Positions 3,857 through 59,156 of a stretch of 64,000 nucleotides of DNA are shown one piece after another. This stretch comes from Methanobacteriota archaeon. Its GTDB lineage: Archaea; Thermoplasmatota; Poseidoniia; Poseidoniales; Poseidoniaceae. Within the stretch, counting starts at the first letter, position 1; every line of letters begins with the position of its first letter. The stretch spans positions 29,090-93,089 of the forward strand of contig JAAZXA010000068.1 in the NCBI GenBank assembly GCA_014240385.1, read 5' to 3'. A program made the position numbers and the translations under genes. The notes below the pieces were generated by a model. It ran no database searches and was not told the DNA's origin. It saw only the letters and a list, made by a program, of their open reading frames with translations.

Positions 3857-3892
3857 GAGCGGTTCATTCCGACAAGGGAATTTCCTTGTTGG

Positions 3893-4126: not shown

Positions 4127-4136
4127 GAGCGGTAAA

Positions 4137-4586: not shown

Positions 4587-4597
4587 GAGCGGTCCCT

Positions 4598-4849: not shown

Positions 4850-4856
4850 GAGCGGT

Positions 4857-5087: not shown

Positions 5088-5095
5088 GAGCGGTT

Positions 5096-5251: not shown

Positions 5252-5260
5252 GAGCGGTGT

Positions 5261-5470: not shown

Positions 5471-5478
5471 GAGCGGTT

Positions 5479-6354: not shown

Positions 6355-6361
6355 GAGCGGT

Positions 6362-6652: not shown

Positions 6653-6766
6653 GAGCGGTGTCCTCGATTATGAGGATGATTTCGGTTATTTCTCCGTTGT
6701 TGTCTCTCTTTACATCATGTGGTGTGCAAAGTCCGTATTTGGGGTGCATGTAATGCATGAGCGGTT

Positions 6767-7237
6767 TCATTCATCGAATGAAAGTTTGTCAAAACCGAAG
6801 TTCATCGTGTAGTAGTAACCATCATAAATCTCACCATATCCCTCGATGACAACTATGTCACCAATGGACATTGATGTGTGTCCGACTTCGTTTTCACTCA
6901 TCCAGTTCTGTCCGAATCTTGGATTATCTGGTTCGAGCGGTATTGCGTTGTCGAACTCGTCATAGCAGTTAATCCTGCCTTTGCCGTCCCAATTACGATA
7001 TTCTTCTGCAAGTGGGTTTGTTGCGTATGAGTTCATTCTTCGGAAGATGGCTTCAAGGGTGATTTTTGGTTCGTTATCCTGTGAAGGAACCAAGCACAAG
7101 CCGTCTTCCTCAAGGTTGAATACGACCCAACTGGGCAACTCAGCCCATTGTTCTTCGATTTCTTGCTTTGTTTGTAGTTTCCTGTCTCGGAACATAAATT
7201 CACAGTTCCTCTTTCCGTACAAGATCTTAATCTTCAT
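6767..7237 (-). CDS. hypothetical protein, 156 aa
   Basis: motif start 7235-7237. Confidence 0.55.
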   Translation of the reverse strand: MKIKILYGKRNCEFMFRDRKLQTKQEIEEQWAELPSWVVFNLEEDGLCLVPSQDNEPKITLEAIFRRMNSYATNPLAEEYRNWDGKGRINCYDEFDNAIPLEPDNPRFGQNWMSENEVGHTSMSIGDIVVIEGYGEIYDGYYYTMNFGFDKLSFDE

Positions 7238-7246
7238 GAGCGGTAT

Positions 7247-8152: not shown

Positions 8153-8162
8153 GAGCGGTTCC

Positions 8163-9002
8163 TCAGTTCCATCGCATTGCAAACCTGATAAGGTACTTGC
8201 GTTTTGCACATGAGGTCCTTATTGTAACAAACATAGTTCCATATCCGTTAGGATGGCCGTCGTTGACGGTTAGGTCTGTTGGACAATAGATTTCGATTCG
8301 GGCATTGTTCAATACCCAATTCGGCATTTTTGCTAATTGATCTAAGCGGTAAGCTTCTAGCGTCCCCGACATCTTAATTCCCCCTGGGTTATCAATGGGA
8401 ATAATGACGGTGTTGCTTTCCGATTCGCCTGCGGTTCTGCTTAATTTGAATTCGTTCTCATCAATTGCAAATTGTGTTTGCTGGAATGATTGTGCCAATG
8501 ATTTCAATTTCATCTTCAAGTTTTTGTCTTGGATAGTGAAATTCCTATTAGGCCCCCTCATCCTCTCGAGTTTGGGGTTCATCAAGGATTGAGATGAAAA
8601 ATCGTTGCGGGAATTTTTCCATTTGGAGTTGTTTCCCCAACGCATGGTGAATTCACCATCTTCATCTTCTAATTCAACGGTTGATTTGCCTGCAATTGAG
8701 GCTCCACTCATTCCTTTGAATGTTTTCCATTGCGTCTTGGAGAAATTTCTTCCAACTTCTCCATTGGCAATTTCGTGATTAGAATAGTCAATCCGGTTCA
8801 AACTGAGAAGTGGCATTATCTCTTCATTGCCTATACTCCACCATTCATGCTCCTGTGAATTGGGGTCAATTACAGGTGCCGTTGATGAAAGGAGGAGGCC
8901 TTGTTCACAAAATCCGATTCTAATCGAATCCTCGTTTCCAATTAAGCGATTGGCTATGCCAATTATCTGTCTATTTGCTGTAGCATCTAGTGTTGCTTTC
9001 AT
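8163..9002 (-). CDS. hypothetical protein, 279 aa
   Basis: motif start 9000-9002. Confidence 0.55.
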   Translation of the reverse strand: MKATLDATANRQIIGIANRLIGNEDSIRIGFCEQGLLLSSTAPVIDPNSQEHEWWSIGNEEIMPLLSLNRIDYSNHEIANGEVGRNFSKTQWKTFKGMSGASIAGKSTVELEDEDGEFTMRWGNNSKWKNSRNDFSSQSLMNPKLERMRGPNRNFTIQDKNLKMKLKSLAQSFQQTQFAIDENEFKLSRTAGESESNTVIIPIDNPGGIKMSGTLEAYRLDQLAKMPNWVLNNARIEIYCPTDLTVNDGHPNGYGTMFVTIRTSCAKRKYLIRFAMRWN

Positions 9003-9008
9003 GAGCGG

Positions 9009-9107
9009 TCAAATGATTTTTCCACATTTCTGACAAGACTGGGGGTGAACCCCTGAATGTCTAGGACATGGGTTTTCGCAAATACAATCTTCTGATTCAT
9101 CAGTCAT
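9009..9107 (-). CDS. Cys-rich micro-protein, 32 aa (not in ORF track)
   Basis: motif start 9105-9107; MTDESEDCICENPCPRHSGVHPQSCQKCGKII; stop abuts next motif. Confidence 0.3.
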   Translation of the reverse strand: MTDESEDCICENPCPRHSGVHPQSCQKCGKII

Positions 9108-9133
9108 GAGCGGTTTAGGATTACGAGTGTATT

Positions 9134-9376
9134 TCAACTCTTGGGGCGAAAATGTGCCTCGACTCCAGCCCAAATCCATACGGTTTCATGATCTCCATAA
9201 GTGACGATTACTATGTCTTGGGGTTTGTACCCGTCTTGCAATAAATGCTCAATGTTTTCGTCTGGTCCGCTTGAGGCGAACATTTTGAATCCAGGGTAGG
9301 GTGGATCTAGTTCATCTCTTGCGTTCCATAAGACGGTTTCACAAAACCAGCCTTCTACTCTATCTATTTCGGTCAT
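9134..9376 (-). CDS. hypothetical protein, 80 aa
   Basis: motif start 9374-9376. Confidence 0.5.
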   Translation of the reverse strand: MTEIDRVEGWFCETVLWNARDELDPPYPGFKMFASSGPDENIEHLLQDGYKPQDIVIVTYGDHETVWIWAGVEAHFRPKS

Positions 9377-9384
9377 GAGCGGTC

Positions 9385-9951
9385 CTATTGTTCAATCCAA
9401 TGCCCATCAGAATCGTATTCCTTTGGGTCAATGGTTGTCTTTTCATAGGCTTTGTGTGGGTTGATGTACCAGAATGATTCTTTGTTGATGTAAATCACGG
9501 CTTGTTCTAGTTGCCTTCCTTTCTCAGAGTTTCCTCGTAAGATTTCTTCCGGCCTCCAGGTATGTCCATGTTCATCAACCATAGAATCATCACCATGTTT
9601 CGAACGGTGGTCTGAAAGTAAATGGTAGCTTAGGTTCACGGCAAATTGCATTTCACTATGCCAACCTGCAGCGTTTGTGCTCCATCCTGCTTCTTTCATT
9701 CTTTCAATCAATTCGATGGTGACGAATTCTGGTAGTTTCTGTCCTTCACCAAAAGTTGGTGATTCCTTATCGTAATCTTTGTTGAAGTTAGGCCAAACAA
9801 TCTTGAGTCTGTTCAAAAACACAAGAGGGTCTCGGCAGTCCCCGCAACCTGTTACTGCACTGACGCTTCCAAGAGTATATCCGCAAGCGAATCCAATTTC
9901 TTCGTCAGTAAAGTTTTCTTTATCCATATAGTATCCTACTAGTAGTGGCAT
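9385..9951 (-). CDS. hypothetical protein, 188 aa
   Basis: motif start 9949-9951. Confidence 0.55.
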   Translation of the reverse strand: MPLLVGYYMDKENFTDEEIGFACGYTLGSVSAVTGCGDCRDPLVFLNRLKIVWPNFNKDYDKESPTFGEGQKLPEFVTIELIERMKEAGWSTNAAGWHSEMQFAVNLSYHLLSDHRSKHGDDSMVDEHGHTWRPEEILRGNSEKGRQLEQAVIYINKESFWYINPHKAYEKTTIDPKEYDSDGHWIEQ

Positions 9952-9958
9952 GAGCGGT

Positions 9959-10222
9959 TTATTCGTGGATCCAGAATACCCTGATTATGTGCGTTTCTGC
10001 ACTTGTTTCATCTGGTTCAAGGTGTATCTTGGTTATTGTCCTCATTCTTTTGGTTCTCTTTGCTCCTGAATATGTTTCAAGTGACTTTTCTTCCATGTGA
10101 ATAATTTTCCAACGGGAATAGATGTCGAGAAGCCCGTGCTTCTTGCTGCTCATCTTTTTCCTTAGAGTGCTTGAAGCTACCTTTCCTCCAATTTTGGGGT
10201 TTTTCAGTGGTTCAATCTTCAT
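9959..10222 (-). CDS. hypothetical protein, 87 aa
   Basis: motif start 10220-10222. Confidence 0.5.
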   Translation of the reverse strand: MKIEPLKNPKIGGKVASSTLRKKMSSKKHGLLDIYSRWKIIHMEEKSLETYSGAKRTKRMRTITKIHLEPDETSAETHIIRVFWIHE

Positions 10223-10409
10223 GAGCGGTTTCTCCTAAATCTATTATTCCAAGTTCGACTGCAGCAAGTTCAATTGCCACATCTAGCGGCAGTATGTTGC
10301 CGCCTACGCAGTGTCTGTTGTGTTCCATGTAAATGGAGACAACTCGTGAACTGAATTCTGGGGTGTGATTTTCTTCAACTAATTTTCTTGCTTTTGTTGC
10401 TAAATCCAT
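10212..10409 (-). CDS. hypothetical protein, 65 aa
   Basis: motif start 10407-10409 (..KKPLM DLATK..). Confidence 0.5.
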   Translation of the reverse strand: MDLATKARKLVEENHTPEFSSRVVSIYMEHNRHCVGGNILPLDVAIELAAVELGIIDLGETAHED

Positions 10410-10422
10410 GAGCGGTTTCTTT

Positions 10423-10593
10423 TCAGTAGTCCCAATACCACCTATCATTGCCTGCCGCCAGATATTCTGCGCCACGCACAGCCGTATCGAACTTTCGTTC
10501 TAATTCGATTATCCGTTCTTCTAGTTTTTGGATTAAGGCGAGTAATTGGGTTTCTCTATCAATATCTTGCTTTTCAGCATGTTTTGATTTCAT
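10423..10593 (-). CDS. hypothetical coiled-coil protein, 56 aa
   Basis: motif start 10591-10593. Confidence 0.45.
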   Translation of the reverse strand: MKSKHAEKQDIDRETQLLALIQKLEERIIELERKFDTAVRGAEYLAAGNDRWYWDY

Positions 10594-10600
10594 GAGCGGT

Positions 10601-10807
10601 TTATTCACTTCGGACGAAGGAGTCGCCTCCCATGATGCCGAATACCCATTTGGGTGGACACCACGAACCGTTTTCTTCTGATTCTGGCTTCAATAGCAAA
10701 TACATCTGCATTGCGCCTACAAGGAAATCGGCTTCACTAACAAGTGAGCCGTTCTTGTGCCTTGCAGACAATACTTCGATGATTTTTTCTTGTATTTCTT
10801 GTTCCAT
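10601..10807 (-). CDS. hypothetical protein, 68 aa
   Basis: motif start 10805-10807. Confidence 0.5.
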   Translation of the reverse strand: MEQEIQEKIIEVLSARHKNGSLVSEADFLVGAMQMYLLLKPESEENGSWCPPKWVFGIMGGDSFVRSE

Positions 10808-10814
10808 GAGCGGT

Positions 10815-11144
10815 TCATTCCGCATTCCAAAGATGGGGGTTTCCTGAACGAATTATCGTCAGTATTTCCCACCTTTGGAATGTTATGTCGTTAATTGTTA
10901 GTTGTTCGGGTATCTTCTTCATGTCTGGCCTGTATGTAGGAACAGTTCCATTTTCCAACCTTGTCCGAGTCATTAGATCTCCAAAGTGTTCTTCTGCGAA
11001 ATTCTTCCTAATCGCACCGTTCCTTGCGGAACGATAGTATAGGGTTTCGTCTGAATCTCGCATTTTTCCCATTAGAGTTGTCCAATATTCAGGATCGTTC
11101 CAGACTTCAATGTCCATTCCGAGTTCTCTGTTAATTAGAGTCAT
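10815..11144 (-). CDS. hypothetical protein, 109 aa
   Basis: motif start 11142-11144. Confidence 0.55.
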   Translation of the reverse strand: MTLINRELGMDIEVWNDPEYWTTLMGKMRDSDETLYYRSARNGAIRKNFAEEHFGDLMTRTRLENGTVPTYRPDMKKIPEQLTINDITFQRWEILTIIRSGNPHLWNAE

Positions 11145-11332
11145 GAGCGGTTAGGCCATTTACATCTCTTCCTTCTGTCCATGTTTCTCTGAACTCAAAC
11201 TCCTACCATCAGGTCGTCCGAACTGCGGATTTGCTCCTGTCTCGTTCAATGTAGGTTCTCAAGCAAAGGCCATTTTGGACTAGGTAATTATGTTCCATTG
11301 GCCGTCCCCCGGCTACTTGTTGACTTTGCGTT

Positions 11333-11356
11333 GGTGCCGTCCAAGGATAGGACACC
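11333..11356. repeat. conserved hairpin element, copy B (GGTGCCGTCCAAGGATAGGACACC)
   Basis: same element as 1952-1975; followed by CCGTGAGCGG (11375-11384) just after stop of upstream gene. Confidence 0.7.
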
Positions 11357-11405
11357 TTTTGCTTATCGTCGTATTGAGCCGTGAGCGGTTGGCCGAAGTT
11401 GATAT

Positions 11406-11702
11406 TCAAGCCATAGGTGGCGAGACAATCTTGTTGCACTTCGCCGGTATCTTCGTGCAGCGCAAAAAGTCAACATTCTTCTCGGGCATCATAAAGGGGG
11501 CTGTCGTATATGTTGTGCGCTTGTATTCCTTCACGCCATCATGTCCGATGATTAATGCTCCCTCTTCGTTCTTATGCTTCTCAAACCATTCTTTGCATTT
11601 TGCTTCCAATGTCTTGATGTCTTCTTCCATTGCTTTCTTAGCTTCTTTCATTTTTGCCAAATGTACGAATTTATCTCGTATTCTTTTAGGTGCTTTTGCC
11701 AT
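11406..11702 (-). CDS. hypothetical lysine-rich protein, 98 aa
   Basis: variant start context CCCCTC-ATG (catgagggg 11700); MAKAPKRIRDKF... Confidence 0.45.
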   Translation of the reverse strand: MAKAPKRIRDKFVHLAKMKEAKKAMEEDIKTLEAKCKEWFEKHKNEEGALIIGHDGVKEYKRTTYTTAPFMMPEKNVDFLRCTKIPAKCNKIVSPPMA

Positions 11703-15919: not shown

Positions 15920-17191
15920 TCATTCCAGTATTTTCTGCATCTCCTTTTCGAGCAAAGCATCATTTCTTCGTGCTATGTGCTCTTTCATGGAGTATCGCAG
16001 ACCGTCATACTTGAGGCTGTTCAGCGTAGCCTTGCCAAGATTGGCAACAGGCTTACGCTCATACCAGTCTTTTCGCTTCATCATCTCGCCTGTAACGGGA
16101 TGAGGAACGATTTCATTTCCTTCTGGGCTTTCAGCGAGTTTCAACCATTGGAAGGGCATCAATTTCCATGCGCCTATCTTCTCAGTATATGGCTTGAATT
16201 CTTTCTTGTAGCCCGAAAGTCCTGATTTCTTATCGGGTTCTGGTGTCATCTTGTAAACATGAGTACAGTTAGGATCTTCGCACCATCCACTAGCCATAGG
16301 AGTCCTATGGTAGCCTCGGTTGCATCTACCTCCCTTGTTGAGAGGCATTCCATCTCTGTGCCATTTCTCATGCTTGTCTTCTGAGTAGAAGCGTTCTTCG
16401 ATTCCTAGAGCTTCTTGCAGCCCTATACCATCAGCGTCAATCAAACGGTCAACTTCCCATTCTTTGCAGAATGGACACCACATGCATGAACTCTTCTGGA
16501 CTGGGGAGCCATCTCCCCTGTAATCCCATCCAAGTATCTGCAACATGGCGAGGCATTCTTTCCTATTCATGTCCAATTCCTGGAGAGGATAGGAGTATTC
16601 ATGCCCTTTGACTTTGTTTTGACCGTGGTTTGCTGTGAATCTGTCAGTTCTTCCACCTTCGTTGGCTTCGATGCCAAGCATCCACCATTTTTCCGATACA
16701 GTATGGTCTCCAAAGGTTTCTTCTGCCCATTTCTGTTGGACATTTCCCTTGAATCTCATGCTGCAGGTATGTTGTTGTCCTCCAATTACTGGAAGCATTC
16801 CTCCATCCATCAACCATTCATAGATCTTGTAGACCTTTTCTCCCTTGGTGTAATCATCCTTCTCTGATTTGGGCAAACTTCTCCATTCTTCATAGCGGAG
16901 TTCTTCGCCTGTATCATTGTGATGATAAACGGGGATTGTGTGTCTAACGGTAACTACTGGCAAGCCTACTTCTGCGCATCGCTTCTCTGCGTATGCAAGG
17001 TTTTCGTAGGTTTCAGGCCATTCGCTACCGGGATCCGAGAATACGGCTGCAACGAATGGAGGAAACTTTTCGTCTAGTTCTTGTCGAGTTATCCCCAACG
17101 CTTCGGCTGAGGTGTCTCTGTCTAAGTGCATGGCTAGAAGGGCTGTTGAATCAACCCCTACGCCAAATGATAACAAGTCTATTCGTTTCAT
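15920..17191 (-). CDS. PP-loop-like / PAPS-reductase-like domain protein, 423 aa
   Basis: N-terminal LLSFGVGVDSTALLA resembles SxGxDS PP-loop; motif start 17189-17191. Confidence 0.4.
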   Translation of the reverse strand: MKRIDLLSFGVGVDSTALLAMHLDRDTSAEALGITRQELDEKFPPFVAAVFSDPGSEWPETYENLAYAEKRCAEVGLPVVTVRHTIPVYHHNDTGEELRYEEWRSLPKSEKDDYTKGEKVYKIYEWLMDGGMLPVIGGQQHTCSMRFKGNVQQKWAEETFGDHTVSEKWWMLGIEANEGGRTDRFTANHGQNKVKGHEYSYPLQELDMNRKECLAMLQILGWDYRGDGSPVQKSSCMWCPFCKEWEVDRLIDADGIGLQEALGIEERFYSEDKHEKWHRDGMPLNKGGRCNRGYHRTPMASGWCEDPNCTHVYKMTPEPDKKSGLSGYKKEFKPYTEKIGAWKLMPFQWLKLAESPEGNEIVPHPVTGEMMKRKDWYERKPVANLGKATLNSLKYDGLRYSMKEHIARRNDALLEKEMQKILE

Positions 17192-17198
17192 GAGCGGT

Positions 17199-17954
17199 TT
17201 ATTCCATAGATGCAATCTTTTGCTCTATGGCTGTGTGCTTTCGAAAGATGCTTAGGCATCTAATTCGTGTGTTTGGGCCACAGGTGATTGATACCACACC
17301 ACATCTTGTTGCCCCTTTGGGCTGAATGTAAACCAAATGGTGTAAGGCGAGGAGATATCCTCCTGGCTTTAGCACCCTGATGGCTTCTTTGACCCATGAA
17401 TAGGGCTTGATGTATTCTGTTTTCCATAACTTGTCGGAGTAATCTATCTTGACTCCGTCTGTTGTTTGCATGTCGTAAGGTGGATCTGCAATAACCATGT
17501 CGTATGAATCAGTTTCAATAGGGAACTGTTGTCTGGCATCAGCTACGAATGTAGGATTATTCGCTTCGCTAATGTCCATTGTGTCTTCATTCTCCCTTCC
17601 TTGGATGCTTCCCGAGAATAGGTGTAATACCTTGGTTTCATCGGTGACTTCCATTAGGGCGTCTACTCTACGAAGGAACCCATTTGGGTAGGCTCCCTTG
17701 TATTTCGCCATTGGTCGGCCACAAGCCCACCCTAGACGGAGTGATTTTTCCGTCATGTGGGTCAATGAGGCGTCTTTCTGTTTCAATTTGTTGTAATGCC
17801 TAGCGATTCGATGAATCGTCCCTTTCGAAACTGTTTCACCAATCCTATCGCCTGCCATCTTAGCAGCATCGTCATACGAGTTATTGCTAAGATCGTTGAT
17901 TACTTGCATATGGTCTAGCAATTCAACCTTTCTTCCTTTCAATGTTAAGGACAT
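17199..17954 (-). CDS. DNA methyltransferase (DPPY, N6A/N4C class)
   Basis: MVIADPPYDM motif IV; motif start 17952-17954; 251 aa. Confidence 0.6.
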   Translation of the reverse strand: MSLTLKGRKVELLDHMQVINDLSNNSYDDAAKMAGDRIGETVSKGTIHRIARHYNKLKQKDASLTHMTEKSLRLGWACGRPMAKYKGAYPNGFLRRVDALMEVTDETKVLHLFSGSIQGRENEDTMDISEANNPTFVADARQQFPIETDSYDMVIADPPYDMQTTDGVKIDYSDKLWKTEYIKPYSWVKEAIRVLKPGGYLLALHHLVYIQPKGATRCGVVSITCGPNTRIRCLSIFRKHTAIEQKIASME

Positions 17955-29592: not shown

Positions 29593-30459
29593 TTATGTCC
29601 AAAGACTCCTCGTCATCCTCCATATCCCTGCTTTTGCGAAGTCAGGGTGTTTTTCTATCCCTACTGCGTGTCGCCCTGTGAGCATCGCAGCCAATCCTAG
29701 GCTGTATGATCCTGCAAACGGGTCGAGCACTACATCTCCAGGATAAGTGGAGAAGCGAATAAGTTCAATCAAGAGTTCAACAGGCTTTTCTGTCTGGTGA
29801 ACCTTCTTCCTACCCATCATTCTAGAGTGGGTTTGAACATCTGCTATGCTGTTATTGATTCTTCTGCGCTTCCCTTTCGAGAAGAACAGAATTAGTTCGT
29901 GTCGTGGCCGACCATTGTAGCCAAGTGATATGACTTTCTTATCCCATACCCATTGGCTATTGAATGTGAAACCTGCGGCTTCTGCAATCTTGATTTGATT
30001 GTAGATGTAGTCGTAGGTGTCGTGCTTTGCTGCAGGCATGAAGCAAAAGAAGTGTCCATTGGGCTTCAAGACCCTAAGCATCTCCGAATACAAATCCGAA
30101 TCGATGTCTTTGGTCTCAAAATCCCATCCCTTCTTGAGATTCCTTGCTCGGGTAGTTCCCGTCTGCATTTGAGCATTCAAGATTGAATACGGAGGATCTG
30201 TGATGATAGCATCGAAGCTGTTATCTTCTAACTTTGCTAATTCATCCCAACTGTCTCCTTCAATCAAAGCGCATTGTGTGTCGCCAACTGTGGCGATGTA
30301 TATGCCTCTTGATACTCTGCGAAAGCACTTGTCTATGTTTTCATTGAGTCTTCCACGAATTGTTGTTTCCTTTTCATCAGGCAATGCTTCGTATATCTCC
30401 TTGAGATTCGATTCATTGTCTGCTAGAAATTCAACCAATCTTTCTTTCAATGTTTTCAT
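29593..30459 (-). CDS. DNA methyltransferase (beta-class N6A/N4C, DPPY with C-terminal FxGxG)
   Basis: AIITDPPYS motif IV and VVLDPFAGSYSLGLAA motif I; motif start 30457-30459 (..TEPLM KTLKERL..); 288 aa. Confidence 0.65.
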   Translation of the reverse strand: MKTLKERLVEFLADNESNLKEIYEALPDEKETTIRGRLNENIDKCFRRVSRGIYIATVGDTQCALIEGDSWDELAKLEDNSFDAIITDPPYSILNAQMQTGTTRARNLKKGWDFETKDIDSDLYSEMLRVLKPNGHFFCFMPAAKHDTYDYIYNQIKIAEAAGFTFNSQWVWDKKVISLGYNGRPRHELILFFSKGKRRRINNSIADVQTHSRMMGRKKVHQTEKPVELLIELIRFSTYPGDVVLDPFAGSYSLGLAAMLTGRHAVGIEKHPDFAKAGIWRMTRSLWT

Positions 30460-41034: not shown

Positions 41035-41168
41035 TGGTGGACCGTGCTGGATTCGAACCAGCGGCCTCCTAAGACAGACAACTTCGACTCCTTCCGTCCT
41101 GCCCGGGACAGTTCGGTTTTTGTCTTATTCTGTTTCTTAGGCGCTCTTCCTGACTGAGCTAACGGCCC
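41035..41168 (-). tRNA. archaeal-type tRNA with ~57-nt anticodon-loop intron and encoded CCA; isotype unresolved
   Basis: revcomp reads GGGCCGT-TA-GCTC-AGTCAGGAA-GAGC-G-CCTAA[64 nt]TTAGG-AGGCC-GCTGG-TTCGAAT-CCAGC-ACGGTCC-A-CCA: all four stems canonical; loop+intron between CCTAA/TTAGG. Confidence 0.7.
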
Positions 41169-41250: not shown

Positions 41251-41376
41251 TTTGTGTGTTTGTGAGCGGTTTAGCCTGATTTCCAATCCATACTGACGAA
41301 CTTCCTCGTAAACCAATTCTGGCCTTTCGGCACTCTCGGTTTGCGTAAGAGAGCGAGATCGTTCCCCGTGAGGGGC

Positions 41377-41646
41377 TTAGATCTTCGTAGCTCGCCTTCT
41401 GTTCACCTGGAACCATTGCTGGTACAGGTGCTCTCCAATAACTACTGCTGCAGGGTCGAGCATCGGGTTTCCGCTTGCTAGTGGACGGTCAAAAGACCAA
41501 TCCATGTGCTTACGGTGTTGCCGATATTGCTGTCGCCTGTAACTCAAATAGGGGTGTCCTTCACCGTCAAAGCGGTGTCGGTAACGATATTTTCTTATTT
41601 TTCCCCTCTTCCCAGCATTGGAAATCGTTTGTTGGCTAATTTGCAT
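41377..41646 (-). CDS. basic R/Q/Y-rich hypothetical protein, 89 aa
   Basis: ATG 41644-41646, no motif and no SD; in control region; weak. Confidence 0.25.
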   Translation of the reverse strand: MQISQQTISNAGKRGKIRKYRYRHRFDGEGHPYLSYRRQQYRQHRKHMDWSFDRPLASGNPMLDPAAVVIGEHLYQQWFQVNRRRATKI

Positions 41647-42040
41647 TTATCATACAAGCCCTGAACTACCTCATGTCCGTGGGGCTAATCCACATTGTCC
41701 TTTCGGAGCGTAGAATCACCTAAGCAGCAACCAGCCGCTTTTGCTTCGTAACATATCGGACCAACTGACTAATGCCAGTAGTGATTAAGTCACCAACGAG
41801 GTCTTTTCGTCAATGTTACGGTTTTCGGTGGACTACATGGGAAAGGAGCGATGATAGTCGCTACTTTCTCTCAATGTATATCCGTTAGCCGAGAAGAGGC
41901 ACCAAAAGGTGCGGGTATCTCTATTTCTCGACCCGGTGTCTCGGTGAAGTCCTCTTTCGAGGGATCCTCCGCCTTATCCCCTATCTCTAGGGTTTAGCAG
42001 ATACTTCGTGTAGGCCCTTGAGCCAACCGAGAGAGGGCAT

Positions 42041-42100
42041 TCCTGTCCTCATTAGATGAGGTCATAGGAGCCCTAGGCCTTGCCGTAGCAAGGTGGTGTG
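42041..42100. repeat. two-hairpin element, copy 3 (diverged: GGAGCCCTAGGCC)
   Basis: TCCTGTCCTCATTAGATGAGGTCATAGGAGCCCTAGGCCTTGCC + GTGTGTGG tail. Confidence 0.55.
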
Positions 42101-42101
42101 T

Positions 42102-42545
42102 GGTATAATTTCTTCGTGGTTTTAGGCCACAGGAGGTATATGAATAGGCCCTTTTACTCTCTTTCCTTTGGATCTAGAGGCCTCAAGCTGCTACTCTTGG
42201 CCTCTTTCTCTAGAAAGAGTGTATTTTGGGTATTTCTTCATGTTCTCCACTGTATTGTGCCACAGGGGGTATATGAATAGGCCACTTGCAGTCAATTTCA
42301 AGATCGCTGAAAGGGCATGATTAGCTTCTCATGCCTTCGCTTTCAATTATTGCTTCAATATGGGTATTTCTTCATGTTCTCCACTGTATTGTGCCACAGG
42401 GGGTATATGAATAGGCCATATTTCGGTAACATCTCCAGATCTCTCCTTCGAAAGCTACTCCTGGCATGGCCGTAGGCCAAACAGGGTGAAATATGGGTAT
42501 TTCTTCATGTTCTCCACTGTATTGTGCCACAGGTGTTATTTGGCA
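42102..42545. promoter_or_regulatory. periodic array: 4 direct ~56-bp units (period ~126-134 bp), each ending in GGTATATGAATAGGCC box, immediately upstream of TFB gene
   Basis: units at 42102-42150 (degenerate), 42228-42283, 42361-42416, 42495-42533 (last lost the TATATGAA box); unique ~75-bp segments between units. Confidence 0.7.
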
Positions 42546-42563
42546 AGGCCGTTTCCGTTAACC

Positions 42564-43694
42564 ATGGCGAGTAATGACGATACGGCCAATCAGATGGGGG
42601 CGACTGCTGATTTTTCGTCAATATCGTCTGTCCTTTGTCCTGCATTCGAACAGCCGCCTGGGTGTGCCGTCTCCCTTGCCAAGCAACAAAACTTTGATTC
42701 TTTGTCAGTCGACTCTATGACTGGGAGGGCGTATTGCGGATCATGCGGCGTGGAATTCGTTGTTGACCGTTATCAGGTTAGTCATGAGCAGAAAAAGAGT
42801 GATGATGGGATAGAAACCTACGGATCTGTTCTCTCCAAGTCTGGGAAGCAACGGAATAGGGAACAATCCTTTGACCGCCTGGGCTATCTTTGTATTAGCA
42901 AGTTGGACTTATCTCAAAGTGTGTTGGCACAAGCTACCCGCTACCTGTACGATATGATGGAAGGTGGAGCCGCTAAAGGAGGTCGGGGTTTTCCCCAACT
43001 CGAAGTGGTTGCGGCTTATGTGGCAGGTAGAATGCATAATCAATCCCTTACTCTCGAACATGTTGTTAATATCCATCGAGATTGGATTACAGAAGAAGGG
43101 GAGTTCAAATCGATAAAGGCGGCATCTATGAAATCAGTTAATCGATTGCTGCAGAATATGACTAGGGAAAACATTCTGCCTTACCCCCGCCCTTCTGCAG
43201 ATGATATCATTGGTTCTAATTCGTGGTGCTTGGCTAATCTAGATGAAGTCATTATTCAGAATGCTAAGGAGTTGTCTAATTGCGGAGTCCAAGGTTCCCC
43301 CGATTCTATTGCTGCAGCATCGGTGATGGTGGCTGCGAAGAATAAGCGTGTTGTGAAACCCGGAGATGACTTATCGCGGCCACGAACACAAATGGCCGGA
43401 GAGGAAGATGGGCAGCGTTTAACGCTCGAAGTGATTGCCAAATTGTTTCCTGGCACTACTGCTAGAACTGTAAGGCGAAGAATGAAAGAGATTAGGGATG
43501 TTTTGGAACTTAGGCTACCTCTAACACGAGAGCAAGTAGAGGTTCTTGAAAATCCTGATCCCCGCAAGGTGCGTGTCCGTAATACTGTTGAGGAAGTATT
43601 CAGTCAATTGGATTCGGAATTGGAAGGAAAGATACCATTGACTTCTAAGGATGTAGCAATTCTACGAAAATTGAAAGATTCAAACAAGAGGTAA
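42564..43694 (+). CDS. tfb: transcription initiation factor TFB/TFIIB homologue
   Basis: N-terminal Cys cluster (CPAFEQPPGC...CGSCGVEF), two cyclin-like repeats (LEVVAAYVAGRMHNQSLTLEHVVNI), C-terminal BRE-recognition-helix-like TTARTVRRRMKEI; ATG 42564 (track ORF starts earlier inside repeat array). Confidence 0.65.
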   Translation: MASNDDTANQMGATADFSSISSVLCPAFEQPPGCAVSLAKQQNFDSLSVDSMTGRAYCGSCGVEFVVDRYQVSHEQKKSDDGIETYGSVLSKSGKQRNREQSFDRLGYLCISKLDLSQSVLAQATRYLYDMMEGGAAKGGRGFPQLEVVAAYVAGRMHNQSLTLEHVVNIHRDWITEEGEFKSIKAASMKSVNRLLQNMTRENILPYPRPSADDIIGSNSWCLANLDEVIIQNAKELSNCGVQGSPDSIAAASVMVAAKNKRVVKPGDDLSRPRTQMAGEEDGQRLTLEVIAKLFPGTTARTVRRRMKEIRDVLELRLPLTREQVEVLENPDPRKVRVRNTVEEVFSQLDSELEGKIPLTSKDVAILRKLKDSNKR

Positions 43695-44135
43695 TGTGAT
43701 TTCCCTTTTGGTTTTCTTGGAATCTTTTCTGTATTGCAACAGAACATAATGGATGTCTCTGCGATTGTAGCTTCCGTTTTCATCTGGTTCTGCGGACCAA
43801 CAGGCATACCTTAGTGAGCGGTTTTCTTCCTGCATTAGTTCCAACATGGTTTCAGGGCCAACGCTGTACACTTCCTTGACTTCTCTGAGAGATAATTGCT
43901 CATCTGGAACTAATCGCCAAAGTGTTCGTCTGTATTCTCCTGTTCCATCCTTTGTTCTTTCAACACCTGCTGGATCAAACCTTTCTGGGTATGATGAAAG
44001 GATCCCAGCAATTACTGATTTCCGTTCTTTACCCATTTTGTCTAGTATTCGGTCAAAAGGGAGAATTTCATCTTTGGACTCATGGAAGATTTTCTCAATC
44101 TTTGGGACAAGGCGGTTTTTTGCCTTCCTTGCCAT
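43680..44135 (-). CDS. hypothetical protein, 151 aa (possible wH regulator)
   Basis: ATG 44133-44135 preceded by GAGGGGGATGAGG SD-like purine tract; no ACCGCTC motif. Confidence 0.45.
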   Translation of the reverse strand: MARKAKNRLVPKIEKIFHESKDEILPFDRILDKMGKERKSVIAGILSSYPERFDPAGVERTKDGTGEYRRTLWRLVPDEQLSLREVKEVYSVGPETMLELMQEENRSLRYACWSAEPDENGSYNRRDIHYVLLQYRKDSKKTKREITLPLV

Positions 44136-44642: not shown

Positions 44643-44655
44643 ATACGACTGAACA
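44643..44655 (+). promoter_or_regulatory. TATA-like box CATACGACTGAACA ending exactly 14 nt before ATG 44670
   Basis: member of ATAYGRCTGAACC-N14-ATG family (5 copies). Confidence 0.5.
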
Positions 44656-48960: not shown

Positions 48961-48973
48961 ATATGACTGAACC
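48961..48973 (+). promoter_or_regulatory. TATA-like box ATATGACTGAACC, 14 nt before ATG 48988
   Basis: ATAYGRCTGAACC-N14-ATG family. Confidence 0.5.
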
Positions 48974-49742: not shown

Positions 49743-49755
49743 AAACGGCTGAACC
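49743..49755 (+). promoter_or_regulatory. TATA-like box CAAACGGCTGAACC, 14 nt before ATG 49770
   Basis: ATAYGRCTGAACC-N14-ATG family. Confidence 0.5.
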
Positions 49756-50419: not shown

Positions 50420-50432
50420 ATACGGCTGAACC
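50420..50432 (+). promoter_or_regulatory. TATA-like box CATACGGCTGAACC, 14 nt before ATG 50447
   Basis: ATAYGRCTGAACC-N14-ATG family. Confidence 0.5.
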
Positions 50433-50446: not shown

Positions 50447-51211
50447 ATGACGCTAAGCGGATTCATTGCAATGCCTCGAAAACCGGGGAAAACAAAGATT
50501 GGGCAGATCCTCAAGAATATTGGATTCAAGGATAAGGGAGCAGCAGGAAATATGTGGGTCTTTGGTAAGACTCGGTTCCGTGTAGATGTGGTTGATTTTA
50601 GGGATGATTTGAGAGATCATGACGCTGAATGGGTTGAAGAAGTTGGATGGGATGATAATTGGGCCGTCCGTATTGCTGTCAATCATTCTAACAGAACAGA
50701 TGAAAATTACATCTTGTGGCATTCGATTCTAGTCATAGCCGCTGAGTGCTTAGGCGTTAGAGAAATTTGGTTAGATGGCGGCACAGGCATTCCACAGCAA
50801 CCGTACACACTTCGAGAGTTGTTTCCTGAATTGAAATCTGATGAAGGAGAAGACTTGATTGAAGAATCCGAAGCCGCCCCTGTTCTAGTCGACAAGGCAG
50901 AAGTCTTGGAGCTTCCAGATATTGAAACACCTGCTGAGCCTGTTTTGGTTCCATCTGAGCCTGAGCCTGAGCCTGAGCCTGAACCTGTGCCTGAGCCTCA
51001 AACAGAATCGTCCGAAGAGGATTACGATTCCTGGGGATGGGATGAGGATGAGGATGAGGATGAGGATGAGGATGAGGATGAGGACGATTCATGGAATGAG
51101 GATGAGGATGAGGATGAGGATGAGGATGAGGACGAGGATGAATCCGAAGAAGAGAATGAATCCGAAGAGAATGAATCCGAAGAAGGTGTTGATGTAATCA
51201 CTGAATGGTGA
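50447..51211 (+). CDS. acidic tandem-repeat protein, 254 aa
   Basis: (PE)n then (DE)n low-complexity runs encoded by GAGCCT and GAGGAT hexanucleotide repeats at 50953-51180. Confidence 0.55.
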   Translation: MTLSGFIAMPRKPGKTKIGQILKNIGFKDKGAAGNMWVFGKTRFRVDVVDFRDDLRDHDAEWVEEVGWDDNWAVRIAVNHSNRTDENYILWHSILVIAAECLGVREIWLDGGTGIPQQPYTLRELFPELKSDEGEDLIEESEAAPVLVDKAEVLELPDIETPAEPVLVPSEPEPEPEPEPVPEPQTESSEEDYDSWGWDEDEDEDEDEDEDEDDSWNEDEDEDEDEDEDEDESEEENESEENESEEGVDVITEW

Positions 51212-51234
51212 GTTCTTTGGTTGAAGGGGGTGCA

Positions 51235-51948
51235 ATGGCGTGGGGAGGCCTCCTTTACCTCAAGCACCTTTGGGATTCTTGGAAAAGTCACCGAATAGGA
51301 ATATATGGCCTGTGGGCGTGTGGTAAGACCACCCTGAATCGTTATTTGAATACCTCTGGGGATCTCGAAGAAGATACTGCCCGTATGACTAGCACCGCTC
51401 ACCCCTATGATAAGAAGAAGAAGCAGTATGTTCCACCAAATGCAACCCGCAAGAGAATTCATGTTTTGTCCGAAGCAAATCAGTCATTCCGTAGAACCAT
51501 TCTCTCGTCTGATATTGGAGGCCAGTCCGAATATTTCAATCTCTGGGTTCGAGATTTGGTGTTGCGTGATGTTGAAGTAATCATCTATCTGGTTGATTCA
51601 AGGGATGATCCAGATGGGCTTCAAGAGGCAACATTTCGAGACTTTACGAGAATTATTGCCGAGAGAGATTTCCGTTTTACTGAACGAAAATTGAGGAAAA
51701 AGGCCAGAAATTATCAGCCGAAGGTGGTAGCCCTTGTTGCCAATAAATCGGACCTTTGGCTCAATCCAGACGAACGGGCGTATTACGAGGGGTCTGGCAT
51801 TGGCAGGCATCCAATTTTTGATGCTTACAGGCCGCACTTGGTACGGCTACAGAGAGCCGGTATTCCTACTTTGAAGCGAAGTATTTCAGCCCTCCATGGG
51901 TATGATGTGGAGCGATTAATATGGGATTGCTTGAAGGCGAAGTCGTGA
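51235..51948 (+). CDS. Arf-like small GTPase (Ras superfamily)
   Basis: GLWACGKTTL (P-loop G1), DIGGQ (G3, Arf/Galpha-type), IIYLVDSRDD, NKSDL (G4) with ~50-aa insert between G3 and G4; GAAGGGGGTG SD before ATG 51235. Confidence 0.6.
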   Translation: MAWGGLLYLKHLWDSWKSHRIGIYGLWACGKTTLNRYLNTSGDLEEDTARMTSTAHPYDKKKKQYVPPNATRKRIHVLSEANQSFRRTILSSDIGGQSEYFNLWVRDLVLRDVEVIIYLVDSRDDPDGLQEATFRDFTRIIAERDFRFTERKLRKKARNYQPKVVALVANKSDLWLNPDERAYYEGSGIGRHPIFDAYRPHLVRLQRAGIPTLKRSISALHGYDVERLIWDCLKAKS

Positions 51949-51960
51949 TATGACTAAACC
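51948..51960 (+). promoter_or_regulatory. TATA-like box TGATATGACTAAACC, 14 nt before ATG 51975
   Basis: ATAYGRCTGAACC-N14-ATG family. Confidence 0.45.
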
Positions 51961-54995: not shown

Positions 54996-55297
54996 AAGGA
55001 AAATAAGGGTGGTCTCGGCTCATAAACCCCACGATGGGGGAAGACTAAACCGAATGATCCCCGTAGGGCCAAGTGGACGGCAGGAGGGGCATCGGAGAGG
55101 TCGACACACGCAAATGTGCAGACTCCGATACTCCTGTCGTCCACCTGAGCATTAGAAATAAATGGCGGCGGTATATGTGATCTTCGCTGACCCCCCCCCC
55201 ATGAAAGTGAAAGTGTTGAATATGAATTGAGCCCCGGCGATACTGAGGGTATATGAACTATGCATAGTGGAAGAATTTCCTTGCGGCAGTAATGAAG

Positions 55298-55371
55298 CGG
55301 CCCCACGGGGATTTGAACCCCGGTTACTGGTTCCGCAAACCAGTGTGATATCCAAGCTACACTATGGGGCC
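55298..55371 (-). tRNA. tRNA-Arg (anticodon GCG), archaeal-type, no encoded CCA
   Basis: revcomp GGCCCCA..CTGGT-TTGCGGA-ACCAG..GGGG-TTCAAAT-CCCC-G-TGGGGCC-G; 7-nt loop TTGCGGA. Confidence 0.7.
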
Positions 55372-57563: not shown

Positions 57564-58385
57564 CTACTCTTCCTCAGTCGCTTGATTGTTTTGGAAAGGA
57601 ATGGTTATTTCAGGTTCGGCCACAAGGGTTGGATGTATGCCTTCTACTACCTCTCCATCAACATCCATCATGCCATAGATGTACAAATTCTTTTTCTCGA
57701 GAATGTTCTTGATTGTCTGTCTGTGCCAGACCACCTTTCCCTTCCTTGTTTTGATGGCTTTTGTTGCTAGTTCATTGATTATGTCGGATATTGTGTAGCC
57801 TTGAGTTTCCATATTGAAGATTATGTTTACTACGCTTGCTTCTTCTTCGTTTGGTACAAGCAAACCTTTCTTGGATCTCTTTCCTGTATCATCGATTTCA
57901 ATATTCATGTCATACCCATAGGGGGGTGTTCCAAGCCAAATTCCTTTCAACTTTGCACCTGCCATGCCCATTTTGACTCTTTCTTTGATTTCATTTCGCC
58001 TTAGTTCAGCCAATGCTGCGAATACTATGTAGAAGAAGCGGCCTTGAACCGTTGTAGTGTCCATTTGTTCAGAGATACATGCAATATGGCAGTTGTTTGT
58101 ATCAATTGTGTTTACAAATTCAATTGCGTTCATGGTGTTGCGATGAAACCGGTCTAGTTTGTAACCAACTACTGCGTCCCATTCTTCGCCCATGGTTTCC
58201 ATCATCGCACCATATCCAGGCCTGTTGTCTGTGAATCCACCTGATCCTGTATCTGAGTAGCTTCGAATGTAAGTCCAACCTTGCATTTCGATGTAGTTCT
58301 GGCAAAGCCTCAACTGTTCCTCTAGGCTGTGGCCTTTTGCTTCTTGCTTCTCGGTTGAAACTCTTGTGTAGATTATTGCTCGCAT
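57564..58385 (-). CDS. serine recombinase (resolvase/invertase family) with C-terminal extension
   Basis: N-terminal MRAIIYTRVSTEKQ catalytic-Ser motif; GGAGAGGAAG SD; 273 aa. Confidence 0.7.
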   Translation of the reverse strand: MRAIIYTRVSTEKQEAKGHSLEEQLRLCQNYIEMQGWTYIRSYSDTGSGGFTDNRPGYGAMMETMGEEWDAVVGYKLDRFHRNTMNAIEFVNTIDTNNCHIACISEQMDTTTVQGRFFYIVFAALAELRRNEIKERVKMGMAGAKLKGIWLGTPPYGYDMNIEIDDTGKRSKKGLLVPNEEEASVVNIIFNMETQGYTISDIINELATKAIKTRKGKVVWHRQTIKNILEKKNLYIYGMMDVDGEVVEGIHPTLVAEPEITIPFQNNQATEEE

Positions 58386-58703: not shown

Positions 58704-59082
58704 GGTTCGTTCACCATAACCTTGGTTAATTGTCGCTATGAAGGGTCAGTCGTATTACACCTTCGCCCTGTGAACCGAATTATCACCCGTTTAACACGCT
58801 ATTCCCCCCCACATAGGGGGTATGTTGACGATGAAGGAGTTCCTTTGCGCTCAACCCCCCCACCTTCATAGTCAAAAACGGGTATTTTTCACCTCATAAC
58901 TTCTCATTGAATCGCAAGTCCTCACATCACATCTCAATTGTAAGGTTGGGGTGGAATGAACCTCATGTGGTTCTGCGCTTCTAACCTTCGTTCACAGGCA
59001 ATTCCAATTCCTATCTACACATTAGGGGTGAATTACCTACTTCGTGCAACAAGGGATCTAGATGAAACAATAGGAAACAAGG

Positions 59083-59156
59083 CGGGTCATGCAGGGTTCG
59101 AACCTGCGGCCTACTGGTTAAGAGCCAGTCGCTCTACCTGACTAAGCTAATGACCC
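59083..59156 (-). tRNA. tRNA-Lys (anticodon CTT), archaeal-type
   Basis: revcomp GGGTCAT-TA-GCTT-AGTCAGGTA-GAGC-G-ACTGG-CTCTTAA-CCAGT-AGGCC-GCAGG-TTCGAAC-CCTGC-ATGACCC-G(CC). Confidence 0.75.

Follow-up and report, generated by a model that had tools for sequence, protein, structure and literature searches.

Archaeal viruses are thought to be fully dependent on the RNA polymerase of their hosts, and the means by which they impose a temporal programme on that polymerase are, to our knowledge, largely unknown. In archaea, a TFB encoded by a virus would correspond to the sigma factors of phages, and the locus described here, in a window of 64,000 nucleotides (the whole stretch of DNA that was analysed), raises the question of whether such a factor is present and on which promoters it would act. 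A first-pass annotation had read a 376-aa protein at 42564-43694 as a TFB/TFIIB homologue on a mobile element that could turn host RNA polymerase to element-specific promoters. The identity is well supported by the profile, Foldseek, NCBIfam, and BFVD matches given below, the element being a virus, and redirection of the host polymerase is what we infer.

The open-reading frame is indeed present on the forward strand from an ATG, and the 376-aa TFB/TFIIB-like coding sequence (42564..43694, + strand) is leaderless. It is real and conserved, as homologues with 45–76% identity contained zero frameshifts and had many invariant residues in common in the alignment of relatives, including the arginines of the helix-turn-helix (HTH), and synteny and many invariant residues persisted among viruses whose proteins are merely 34–46% identical. 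A longer form starting at a GTG (42486, 402 aa) was rejected, since its extra part is a translated upstream DNA repeat and protein conservation in the relatives starts at or after the ATG. The family is small, with 16 members detectable among 1.84 billion representatives; the family alignment and profile set comprised 17 members, the distant ones having come from that search. The 3′ end of the gene overlaps by 15 nt a conserved convergent ORF of 151 aa (43680..44135, − strand) that is syntenic in all relatives. This ORF was rejected as a recognizable partner such as TFE because it had no match in either Pfam or the PDB.

By its profile relationships, the 376-aa protein is a true, very divergent homologue of TFB/TFIIB. 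As a single sequence it gave no match with phmmer against the PDB, with tblastn against any INPHARED record, or in PHROGs, and a first profile of 7 close sequences returned just one chance RT match from the PDB. The homology emerged only once the distant members had joined the profile, which then matched the core of Pyrococcus TFB (PwTFB) with E = 8e-13 and human TFIIB with E = 4.6e-10, spanning both cyclin repeats, while its best cyclin matches in the PDB were weak (E = 0.04–0.8). The profile check on the cyclin-like region thus favoured TFB, with TFB/TFIIB at E = 1e-13 to 1e-8 and cyclins at E ≥ 0.04, and identity as a CDK-partner cyclin was rejected, the cyclins being merely fold-level neighbours that ranked under TFIIB. 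Foldseek placed TFIIB and TFB on top (E = 5.6e-8), with TFIIB, TFB, or Brf chains making up 22 of the 23 best matches, and the structural neighbours in BFVD were TFIIBs of giant viruses together with the putative TFB of SSRV1. For Orc6, neither sequence similarity nor closest-fold similarity to the protein was found. The NCBIfam model for archaeal TFIIB (PRK00423) matched 5 of the 17 family members and gave no match to the window protein itself. Against the Pfam TFIIB repeat (PF00382) the window protein scored 21.7 bits, for one repeat only and under the 23.6-bit gathering cut-off, which is exceeded by the relatives P0010 (23.8 bits), P0011 (29.3 bits), and P0019 (29.5 bits).

A second AlphaFold model had a mean pLDDT of 76.7, and most of its 10-residue block means exceeded 90 over residues ~100–310; together with the profile it bears out the earlier claim of two cyclin-fold repeats with TFB-like sequence; both tandem repeats are homologous to the TFIIB core. 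The first (residues 94–205; 42843..43178, + strand) was aligned to PwTFB core residues 5–80 with a domain i-E of 1.3e-6, and the Pfam TFIIB repeat covered its residues 112–170 (E = 2e-4). It contains an invariant GAxKGGRG loop (135–142) and a lineage-specific beta-hairpin insert (173–183). The second repeat (residues 206–317; 43179..43514, + strand) carries an insert of ~25 residues (259–287) and an HTH, and its alignment to human TFIIB residues 104–292 is continuous. TFIIB reads BREu via its HTH (V283, R286) and BREd via the G153-R154 loop of repeat 1, and the family-invariant KGGRG loop aligned with this G153-R154 loop in the family profile. The HTH region corresponds to helices 288–294 and 300–317 of the model; its recognition helix TTARTVRRRMKEI was aligned by the family profile with PwTFB VTEVTVRNRYKEL and human TFIIB ADVTIRQSYRLI. 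The stretch LTLEVIAKLFPGTTARTVRRRMKEI was aligned with PwTFB RTQREVAEVARVTEVTVRNRYKEL and human TFIIB ...VADVTIRQSYR, placing R304 opposite human TFIIB R286. The recognition helix of this predicted C-terminal HTH matches the BRE-reading helix. A C-terminal helix resembling the BRE-reading helix had been proposed before; the resemblance holds in the alignments with PwTFB and human TFIIB, but the helix is not the C-terminus, since ~60 conserved residues lie beyond it. These form a family-specific tail of three helices (residues 318–376; 43515..43691, + strand) with an invariant N330, a near-invariant P331, and the motif LTxxDVxxLRxL+, conserved in 17 of 17 family members and matched by nothing in the alignments with PwTFB or human TFIIB.

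On the N-terminal side of the repeats, the cysteines C25, C34, C58, and C61 define a module of residues 25–61 (42636..42746, + strand) that is a candidate non-canonical Zn ribbon. All four are invariant among close relatives (alignment A1) and are retained in most of the wider family, where the pattern C-x8-C-x16-50-C-x2-C recurs throughout. The description of this N-terminus as Zn-ribbon-like stands as far as the four conserved cysteines are concerned, but the first pair deviates in spacing (C-x8-C...C-x2-C compared to the canonical C-x2-C...C-x2-C), Pfam Zn_Ribbon_TF matched the protein only with E = 0.16, and the module is poorly modelled, with pLDDT 50–66. The module is followed by a short linker (residues 62–93; 42747..42842, + strand) that stands in place of the B-reader and B-linker and ends with the family motif LSKSGxQRNRE. 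In the profile alignment, the distance from C61 to S88 is ~27 aa, compared to ~67 aa from C37 to residue 104 in human TFIIB. Because the segment between cysteine module and core is ~40 residues shorter than that of human TFIIB, the B-reader and B-linker cannot, judging from the aligned lengths, both fit, and the [ED]W[RK]x[FYW] reader motif is absent from all 17 family members.

The gene has its own promoter unit (unit 4; 42496..42563, + strand), in which GCCACAGG at 42526-42533 is followed by a variant TATA-like box, TTATTTGG, at 42536-42543, with 28 nt from box start to ATG. CCACAGG is present at −37 of the ATG, with like geometry, in L002-L005, L007, and L008, and the arrangement is equivalent in L001, L009, and L010. 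Three more tandem copies of the promoter-like unit lie at 42110..42422 on the + strand (cores 42110-42155, 42229-42288, and 42363-42422) with a period of 133–134 nt, and the repeat search gave the unit core sequence ...GCCACAGG[AG]GGTATATGAATAGGCC. Relatives contain 2 to 5 tandem units each, identical in the core; the layout recurs in every one, always with the last unit placed before the ATG at exactly the distance of a promoter. In every relative the GCCACAGG-TATA unit is confined to the array that immediately precedes the gene. The TFB gene promoter is a separate class, GCCACAGG-N3-TATA. Reading the repeat units as micro-ORFs (SD-like AGGAGG and ATG, 'MNRP...') was rejected since the L001 units are without an ATG, and a CRISPR-like array was rejected since unit and spacer sizes misfit. 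ATACGACTGA resembles the T7 promoter (TAATACGACTCAC), a likeness that is probably fortuitous, given that the analysis met no single-subunit polymerase.

Class-B promoters consist of a TATA-like box (TTYATAYG) and a conserved downstream element, GRCTGAACC, 25–29 nt before the ATGs of operon heads. The motif ATAYGRCTGAACC is over-represented (7 matches at ≤1 mismatch compared to 0.25 expected), and AYGRCT-N19-ATG, with 6 matches at ORF starts compared to 0.21 expected, recurs at equivalent genes in relatives. A class-B motif at 44643..44655 (+ strand) heads a glycosyltransferase operon, and identical motif and spacing precede the glycosyltransferase orthologue in L002 (12151) and in L012 (11932); the true start of the glycosyltransferase gene is probably the ATG at 44670. 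Further class-B motifs on the + strand at 48961..48973, 49743..49755, 50420..50432, and 51948..51960 each lie 27 nt upstream of an ATG (48988, 49770, 50447, and 51975, respectively). What the first-pass annotation had called diverged −27 boxes is a real motif, over-represented and conserved, but it consists of a fairly ordinary TATA-like box plus GRCTGAACC and not of a diverged TATA alone. The viral promoter types in question are the GCCACAGG-N3-TATA unit and the TTYATAYGRCTGAACC promoter. TATA-like boxes with conserved flanks are present, 28–29 nt ahead of the ATG, at the TFB gene and at 5–6 operon heads, and the promoter motifs recur at orthologous genes of relatives down to 34% protein identity. 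Enrichment of bacterial sigma-70 promoters or intrinsic terminators was rejected, as neither is enriched and sigma-70-type promoters are fewer than expected by chance. Some 90 genes in the left arm are without any TATA-like box, so the promoter model leaves most of the genome unexplained. An invariant ACCGCTC-ATG is present at ~90 gene starts, and an initiator-like (A)ACCGCTCA lies directly on the start codons of ~90 TATA-less genes and also at the 5′ end of a structured RNA of ~850 nt.

This RNA (41265..42115, − strand) is divergent to the TFB-like gene, and its start adjoins the first promoter unit. Compensatory changes were observed in 53 of its 144 pairs, and 94.6% of cells were paired compared to 33–45% in slid controls (alignments A3, A4, and A6). 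No Rfam family matched it, and a role in guiding cleavage at ACCGCUC through base pairing was rejected, since no complement is conserved. Gene, array, and structured RNA are conserved together, as a single block, among relatives whose proteins are as little as 34% identical. The RNA beside the gene and the genome-wide ACCGCTC-ATG signal suggest that an unusual strategy of gene expression has its control centre at this locus.

The carrier is a large marine tailed virus that probably infects archaea; we infer an archaeal host as the most likely one and a virus that is magrovirus-like, resembling the order Magrovirales. It has gene signals of prokaryotic type, both Shine-Dalgarno sequences and leaderless starts. 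Archaeal traits are a tRNA with a 57-nt insert in the anticodon loop and, in a 127-kb relative, genes for an ATP-dependent ligase, a Zn ribbon of TFIIS type, and a chaperonin (Cpn60/TCP1). Counting against this picture, some neighbouring genes are closest to bacteriophage genes; the neighbouring PAPS reductase has 47.5% identity to a Pseudoalteromonas phage counterpart, and the phrog_1250 neighbour protein has ~29% identity to T4-like phage proteins. G+C content is 44–46% in the window compared to 31.5% in magrovirus YSH_150918. PHROG matches for tail or structure in the window were limited to a 951-aa protein, for which the contig index had no record, and the parts that were looked at showed no sign of a major capsid protein, a terminase, or PolB. 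Neither relatives of the TFB-like protein, in 185,579 GTDB species genomes, nor a copy of the invariant 22-mer of the structured RNA, in GTDB species genomes, was found. Coding strand and GC skew both switch at the TFB-like gene, and the cumulative skew reaches its minimum at 36–42 kb. No TBP, RNA polymerase, or second TFIIB was found among the 102 window ORFs and, with no TBP or polymerase of its own there, the host machinery must serve.

The explanation we prefer, to which we give roughly an even chance, is that the protein is a virus-specific initiation factor acting on viral promoters, in a magrovirus-like virus with an archaeal host and a leaderless mRNA. This mRNA, made from a virus-specific promoter, would yield the TFB-like protein, which would bind host TBP on viral promoters instead of host TFB and would recruit host RNA polymerase via the cysteine module. 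The contact between module and polymerase is uncertain, since the module is non-canonical and modelled at low pLDDT. Transcription would then be channelled to viral promoter classes whose conserved flanks are predicted to sit exactly where the TFB core touches DNA, one, in the reiterated units of the gene itself, with GCCACAGG immediately before the TATA box, and another, at operon heads to the right of these, with GRCTGAACC immediately after it. Having its promoter in tandem copies would give the gene strong or autoregulated expression. Cellular TFB/TFIIB depends on the reader/linker segment to open promoters and to select start sites, and a protein without ~40 residues of this region may not open promoters in the way of a normal TFB.

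The same loss would also allow for a role in shut-off, which we find rather doubtful. Because the B-reader and B-linker are missing, the protein could act as a decoy that binds TBP-DNA and/or RNA polymerase in dead-end complexes, a dominant-negative TFB silencing host or viral early transcription. A shortened reader/linker region without a reader motif, joined to a conserved core and HTH, is consistent with such a competitor, and the tandem promoter copies could supply a sufficiently high dosage. However, P. furiosus TFB2 is also without the conserved reader motif yet supports transcription, the virus needs the host RNA polymerase for its own genes, no polymerase having been found in the window, and the virus-specific conserved elements at the TFB-core contact positions of its promoters would be needless for a pure decoy. 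In favour of a decoy, too, proteins that globally repress the host polymerase are known from archaeal viruses, ATV RIP/ORF145 among them (PMC5123050). The confinement of the GCCACAGG-TATA unit to a single array in every relative, and the conservation of gene, array, and RNA as one block, would also fit an autoregulatory switch that acts only at its own locus, on the reiterated GCCACAGG units and on the promoter that drives the ~850-nt RNA in the divergent direction, and not as a genome-wide factor. This is unlikely in our judgement, as a complete TFB core is a costly route to a local regulator and class-B promoters likewise carry a conserved element at a TFB-contact position; it is also a narrower version of the preferred explanation.

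Orc6 is a eukaryotic TFIIB-fold protein at origins, and the position of the gene at a strand and GC-skew switch, adjoining direct repeats, could be taken to mean that the cyclin/TFIIB fold was re-used for another DNA transaction, such as binding the tandem repeats as origin iterons. We consider this very unlikely, given that the sequence similarity is specific to TFB/TFIIB, BRE-type HTH included, that every relative has its last repeat unit spaced from the ATG exactly as a promoter would be, that GC skew here merely tracks gene orientation, and that a period of 121–134 nt is unusual for iterons. It is hardly credible that the gene is a decaying passenger, acquired from a host and now without function; the extreme divergence, with a Pfam score below the cut-off, and the lack of a direct PDB match for the single sequence would be expected of one, but the reading frame is intact, the promoter is conserved, and synteny and many invariant residues are retained at just 34–46% protein identity.

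Returning to the virus-specific initiation factor, a bolder version, which we rate as quite improbable, makes the stripped-down TFB the dedicated initiation factor of a virus-private code that uses GCCACAGG, GRCTGAACC, and the initiator-like (A)ACCGCTCA, with the linker and cysteine module rebuilt for picking start sites at the initiator. We know of none of these three cis elements in such form from cellular promoters. If this were true, the viral programme would be orthogonal to host transcription, and the ~90 TATA-less genes would be early genes. More generally, the lineage is a natural deletion experiment in which the TBP- and DNA-binding core was kept while the reader/linker segment for DNA opening and start-site choice was lost. 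Its promoters are easily recognised and conserved across relatives, and a single protein, two or three classes of short promoter, and leaderless starts make a testable system, suited to asking how much of TFB initiation needs and how promoter specificity gets re-coded.

The protein resembles archaeal TFB (P. woesei/furiosus TFB1; PDB 1AIS, 1D3U) and eukaryotic TFIIB in its two cyclin repeats, the repeat-1 GR loop, the C-terminal HTH with a T-V-R-x-R-x-K recognition helix, and a cysteine-containing N-terminal module. It is unlike them in its C-x8-C...C-x2-C spacing, its ~40-residue-shorter linker without a reader motif, the inserts at 173–183 and 259–287, and the conserved 60-residue tail after the HTH. 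Loss or alteration of the reader region, in the service of specialised programmes, is also known from natural TFB variants, namely P. furiosus TFB2, which has no conserved B-finger and a full-length linker, and Sulfolobus TFB3, a truncated, UV-induced co-activator without the DNA-binding core. Neither is viral or has a C-terminal tail, and the viral protein keeps the core that TFB3 lacks.

TFB genes were already annotated in the rudiviruses ARV3, MRV1, and SSRV1, in the Asgard wyrdvirus WyrdV1 and related mobile elements, in magrovirus YSH_150918, and in a Halorubrum tailed virus, and the earlier remark that viral TFB homologues are rare is fair but has to allow for these precedents. They are likewise virus-borne TFB homologues and presumed recruiters of host RNA polymerase, the SSRV1 TFB being a structural neighbour, whereas the protein described here has no tblastn-level similarity to any INPHARED record and is set beside YSH_150918 by annotation. 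No functional test of a viral TFB is reported in the literature found. Viral TFBs as such are thus on record, while this lineage and its regulatory surroundings have no prior description. Giant viruses of eukaryotes (Mimiviridae, Marseilleviridae, pithoviruses, and ASFV with C315R) likewise encode initiation factors of TFIIB fold, and these were the top BFVD matches (E ~1e-6), but those viruses have their own RNA polymerase and eukaryotic hosts, whereas here no polymerase was seen and the gene signals are prokaryotic. Phage sigma factors and appropriators (T4 gp55, MotA/AsiA, and SPO1 gp28), which are unrelated in fold and belong to a bacterial transcription system, offer a functional analogy only, in that they re-target the host polymerase to virus promoter classes in a temporal programme.

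The open reading frame that the first-pass annotation had proposed as a mobile-element TFB/TFIIB homologue is present at 42564..43694 on the plus strand and encodes 376 aa from its ATG. Starting at a GTG at 42486 would add nothing more than the upstream DNA repeat in translation; this translated repeat, 'CHRPYLARP', is seen in N-terminal extensions of some database entries of homologues, and in an alignment of seven homologues conservation begins at or after the ATG. C25, C34, C58 and C61, many residues of both helical domains and the segment TTARTVRRRMKEI are invariant in that alignment. The family is tiny, with seven proteins among 5.8 billion clusters and 16 members recovered when 1.84 billion representatives were searched with a profile. 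As a single sequence, the protein matched the Pfam TFIIB repeat in the first repeat only (E=2e-4, 21.7 bits, below the cut-off of 23.6 bits) and Zn_Ribbon_TF at E=0.16, and gave no match in the PDB by phmmer or in phage records by tblastn. Most of the distant family members have weak TFIIB-repeat matches of their own. The proposed homology was borne out by the profile of a 17-member family alignment, which matched the Pyrococcus woesei TFB (PwTFB) core (1AIS, 1D3U) at E=8e-13, human TFIIB at E=4.6e-10 in a single unbroken alignment of residues 104-292 covering both repeats, and yeast TFIIB at E=5e-3; cyclins reached just E=0.04-0.8 with this profile, so the cyclin-like region was not assigned to another family. 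These matches support membership of the TFB/TFIIB superfamily at the core level, and, judged from sequence, it is at this level that the protein is TFB-like in its working.

Compared with a complete TFB, the viral protein is without the reader/linker segment and has a divergent candidate ribbon. Its cysteine module (residues 25-61) has the spacing C-x8-C-x23-C-x2-C, which differs from that of the canonical ribbon, and the structural model is unreliable there (pLDDT 50-66); the C-x8-C...C-x2-C pattern is found again throughout the family. Only ~27 residues lie between the last cysteine and the LSKSGxQRNRE motif at the start of the core, compared with ~67 from C37 to residue 104 of human TFIIB in one HMM alignment, and an EWRxF-like reader motif is absent from every family member, which together indicate that a B-reader and a B-linker cannot coexist in the protein. 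Repeat 1 (residues 94-205) bears GAxKGGRG, the family's most conserved motif, which the HMM alignment places on the TFIIB K-G-R loop; in TFIIB, recognition of the element that follows the TATA box falls to this loop (G153, R154). At the end of repeat 2 (residues 206-317) is a helix-turn-helix whose recognition helix aligns residue by residue with PwTFB TVRNRYKEL and human TIRQSYR, with R304 at the R286 position. The BRE-type helix noticed earlier is therefore found, but not at the C-terminus, as it is followed by a 60-residue, three-helix tail. The tail has an invariant N330, a near-invariant P331 and an LTxxDVxxLRxL+ motif kept in 17/17 family members, and no counterpart to it was found in TFB and TFIIB alignments.

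Directly upstream of the gene, four tandem promoter-like units (class A; 42110-42555, plus strand) recur with a period of 133-134 nt and share the core ...GCCACAGG[AG]GGTATATGAATAGGCC, which is identical in the 2-5 units of relatives. Hairpins and a recurrent AGATC were seen inside the upstream spacers of the array, whose possible roles include the production of short RNAs, read-through into the TFB-like gene and titration of factors. The last unit, the putative promoter of the TFB-like gene itself, carries a variant TATA-like box without exception among relatives (TTATTTGG in the window), always with CCACAGG ~37 nt and the box ~28 nt ahead of the ATG, the latter being the spacing expected of an archaeal TATA box with a leaderless mRNA. 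The diverged -27 boxes of the first-pass annotation are real (7 matches vs 0.25 expected) but amount to a fairly ordinary TATA-like box with a conserved element. In these class B promoters the box lies ~29 nt ahead of the ATG with the element immediately after it, giving the extended form (c/g)TTYAT-AYGRCTGAACC; AYGRCT-N19-ATG was observed at 6 ORF starts in the window against 0.21 expected, and the motif was found again at orthologous operon heads of four related viral loci (L002, L001, L010 and L012). Genes internal to the right arms of the loci have ordinary GGAGG or GGTGA Shine-Dalgarno sequences. One class B form, AATACGACTGA... (58743-58755, minus; 44643-44655, plus), is similar to the left half of the T7 promoter (TAATACGACTCAC), which is probably chance since no single-subunit RNA polymerase was seen. 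Conservation of these flanks indicates virus-specific information just upstream (class A) or just downstream (class B) of the TATA box. A TFB core contacts DNA at these two places, a coincidence that is suggestive of a link to the protein.

The left arm carries another start signal (class C), CCGCTCA[TC]G, invariant at 91 gene starts and preceded by A in 95%. A-CCGCTC-ATG sites stand at nearly every left-arm gene (~150-39100, e.g. 39077, 38073, 17960 and 158, minus strand), and the window holds 91 in minus-strand orientation and a single plus-strand site. The ATG within the motif is the start codon, with the stop codon of the preceding gene directly upstream, and these starts showed no conserved information at -13 to -66 and no TATA-like box at -27. 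The motif also occurs in L001 and L002; in the distant relative L012 its form is less strict, (A)CCGCTCA, ATCGCTC or AACCACTCA, and it stands 0-3 nt ahead of the ATG or before a Shine-Dalgarno leader, and thus marks the mRNA 5' end rather than the codon. The motif may serve as initiator, RNA-processing site or translational handle.

Class C motifs also stand at both ends of a structured non-coding RNA of ~850 nt (~42115 to 41265, minus strand), which is divergent from the TFB-like gene and sits between the first class A unit and an intron-bearing tRNA. The RNA is conserved among all relatives and contains long blocks without variation (L002 8640-9505; L001 8590-9460; L010 8960-9820; L012 8975-9700). 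RNAalifold on five sequences gave 144 pairs; compensatory double changes occur in 53 of these and 94.6% of cells are paired, against 33-45% paired and 6-10 double changes in slid-partner controls and 26.5±3.2 in column-shuffle controls, the fold being somewhat favoured as it was drawn from the alignment used to score the pairs. The presence of GAAA tetraloops and of invariant G-U pairs places the RNA on the minus strand. No Rfam family matched the RNA, and no conserved complement to ACCGCUC was found inside it.

Locus order was unchanged over 76% to 34% protein identity among eleven related loci retrieved from marine metagenomes and IMG/VR: a lengthy leftward arm made up of small genes, a non-coding stretch of ~1 kb, the TFB-like gene, a conserved convergent ORF of ~150 aa, and a rightward arm whose first genes encode GT4 and GT2 glycosyltransferases. 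The convergent ORF, 151 aa in the window (43680-44135, minus) and overlapping the end of the TFB-like gene by 15 nt, keeps its syntenic position in every relative, with 43-87% identity; it had no match in Pfam or PDB and could encode a functional partner. Two relatives have contigs of 127.6 and 128.7 kb. The window also encodes several DNA methyltransferases, two PAPS-reductase-like proteins, a serine recombinase, three tRNAs and a 951-aa protein with PHROG matches to tail or structural families. The two PAPS-reductase-like genes, one with 47.5% identity to a Pseudoalteromonas phage counterpart, and at least four methyltransferases of differing types lie in the left arm (2909-3856, 15920-17191, 5479-6354, 7247-8152, 17199-17954 and 29593-30459, minus) and look like an anti-restriction or DNA-modification arsenal. 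The recombinase (57564-58385, minus; Resolvase and Recombinase domains, E=2.9e-35) lies between tRNA-Arg(GCG) (55297-55371) and tRNA-Lys(CTT) (59081-59156), an arrangement that may represent a module for integration or inversion. The ORF at 51205-51948 (plus) has a weak, above-threshold Pfam Arf small-GTPase match (E=1.6e-5, 24.9 bits, cut-off 22.3), unusual in a prokaryotic virus. The 127.6-kb relative L017 (IMGVR_UViG_3300020446_000001) encodes a 2459-aa protein joining DUF5824, an ATP-dependent DNA ligase and a TFIIS-type Zn ribbon (2659-10038, plus), an adjoining Cpn60/TCP1 chaperonin (10055-11542, plus; E=5e-107) and, upstream, a guanylate-kinase fusion.

Archaea are a candidate, not a proven, host domain. 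We counted in favour the TATA-type promoter geometry with leaderless starts, the TFIIS-type ribbon of the 127-kb relative, the TFB-like gene itself, a deficit of sigma-70-like promoters (20 in the window vs 29.9±4.8 by chance) and the anticodon-loop insert of one tRNA (41038-41168, minus; Rfam 48.9 bits, CCA encoded, missed by ARAGORN), which at 57 nt is below the size of a group I intron; this tRNA is missing in relatives. Counted against were two neighbouring genes whose closest phage homologues are bacteriophage genes, and a search of cellular genomes that gave no match.

Among the 102 window ORFs, none was recognisable as a TBP, a subunit of RNA polymerase or a further TFIIB. A role for the TFB-like protein as an initiation factor is plausible, complicated by the missing linker: at viral promoters bound by TBP it would take the place of host TFB and recruit host polymerase, a reading that we judge about evenly balanced. 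On the protein side we observed core-level family membership, a conserved helix-turn-helix, lost reader/linker length and a gained tail. On the DNA side, the gene has a conserved, reiterated, leaderless promoter, and the promoter flanks are conserved and virus-specific. In the main rival, which we consider unlikely, the protein would form dead-end complexes for want of a reader/linker and act as a decoy or shut-off factor. A narrower role, with autoregulation at its own locus and at the adjacent ~850-nt RNA, appears doubtful. An origin-binding, Orc6-like role for the protein is improbable, and that a gene with so conserved a promoter is a decaying passenger is very improbable indeed.

Viral TFB genes have already been annotated in Italian rudiviruses (bioRxiv 10.1101/2020.01.16.907410; MN876842), in the Asgard wyrdvirus WyrdV1 and related elements, in magrovirus YSH_150918 (PMC10768690) and in a Halorubrum tailed virus (OP630574), and the works cited for them report no functional test of any. 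The present family had no detectable sequence similarity to the viral records compared. The TFB-like gene, promoter array, large RNA and genome-wide start signal together make one locus of note. A viral TFB as such is thus already known; what is new is the present family, whose architecture is distinctive.
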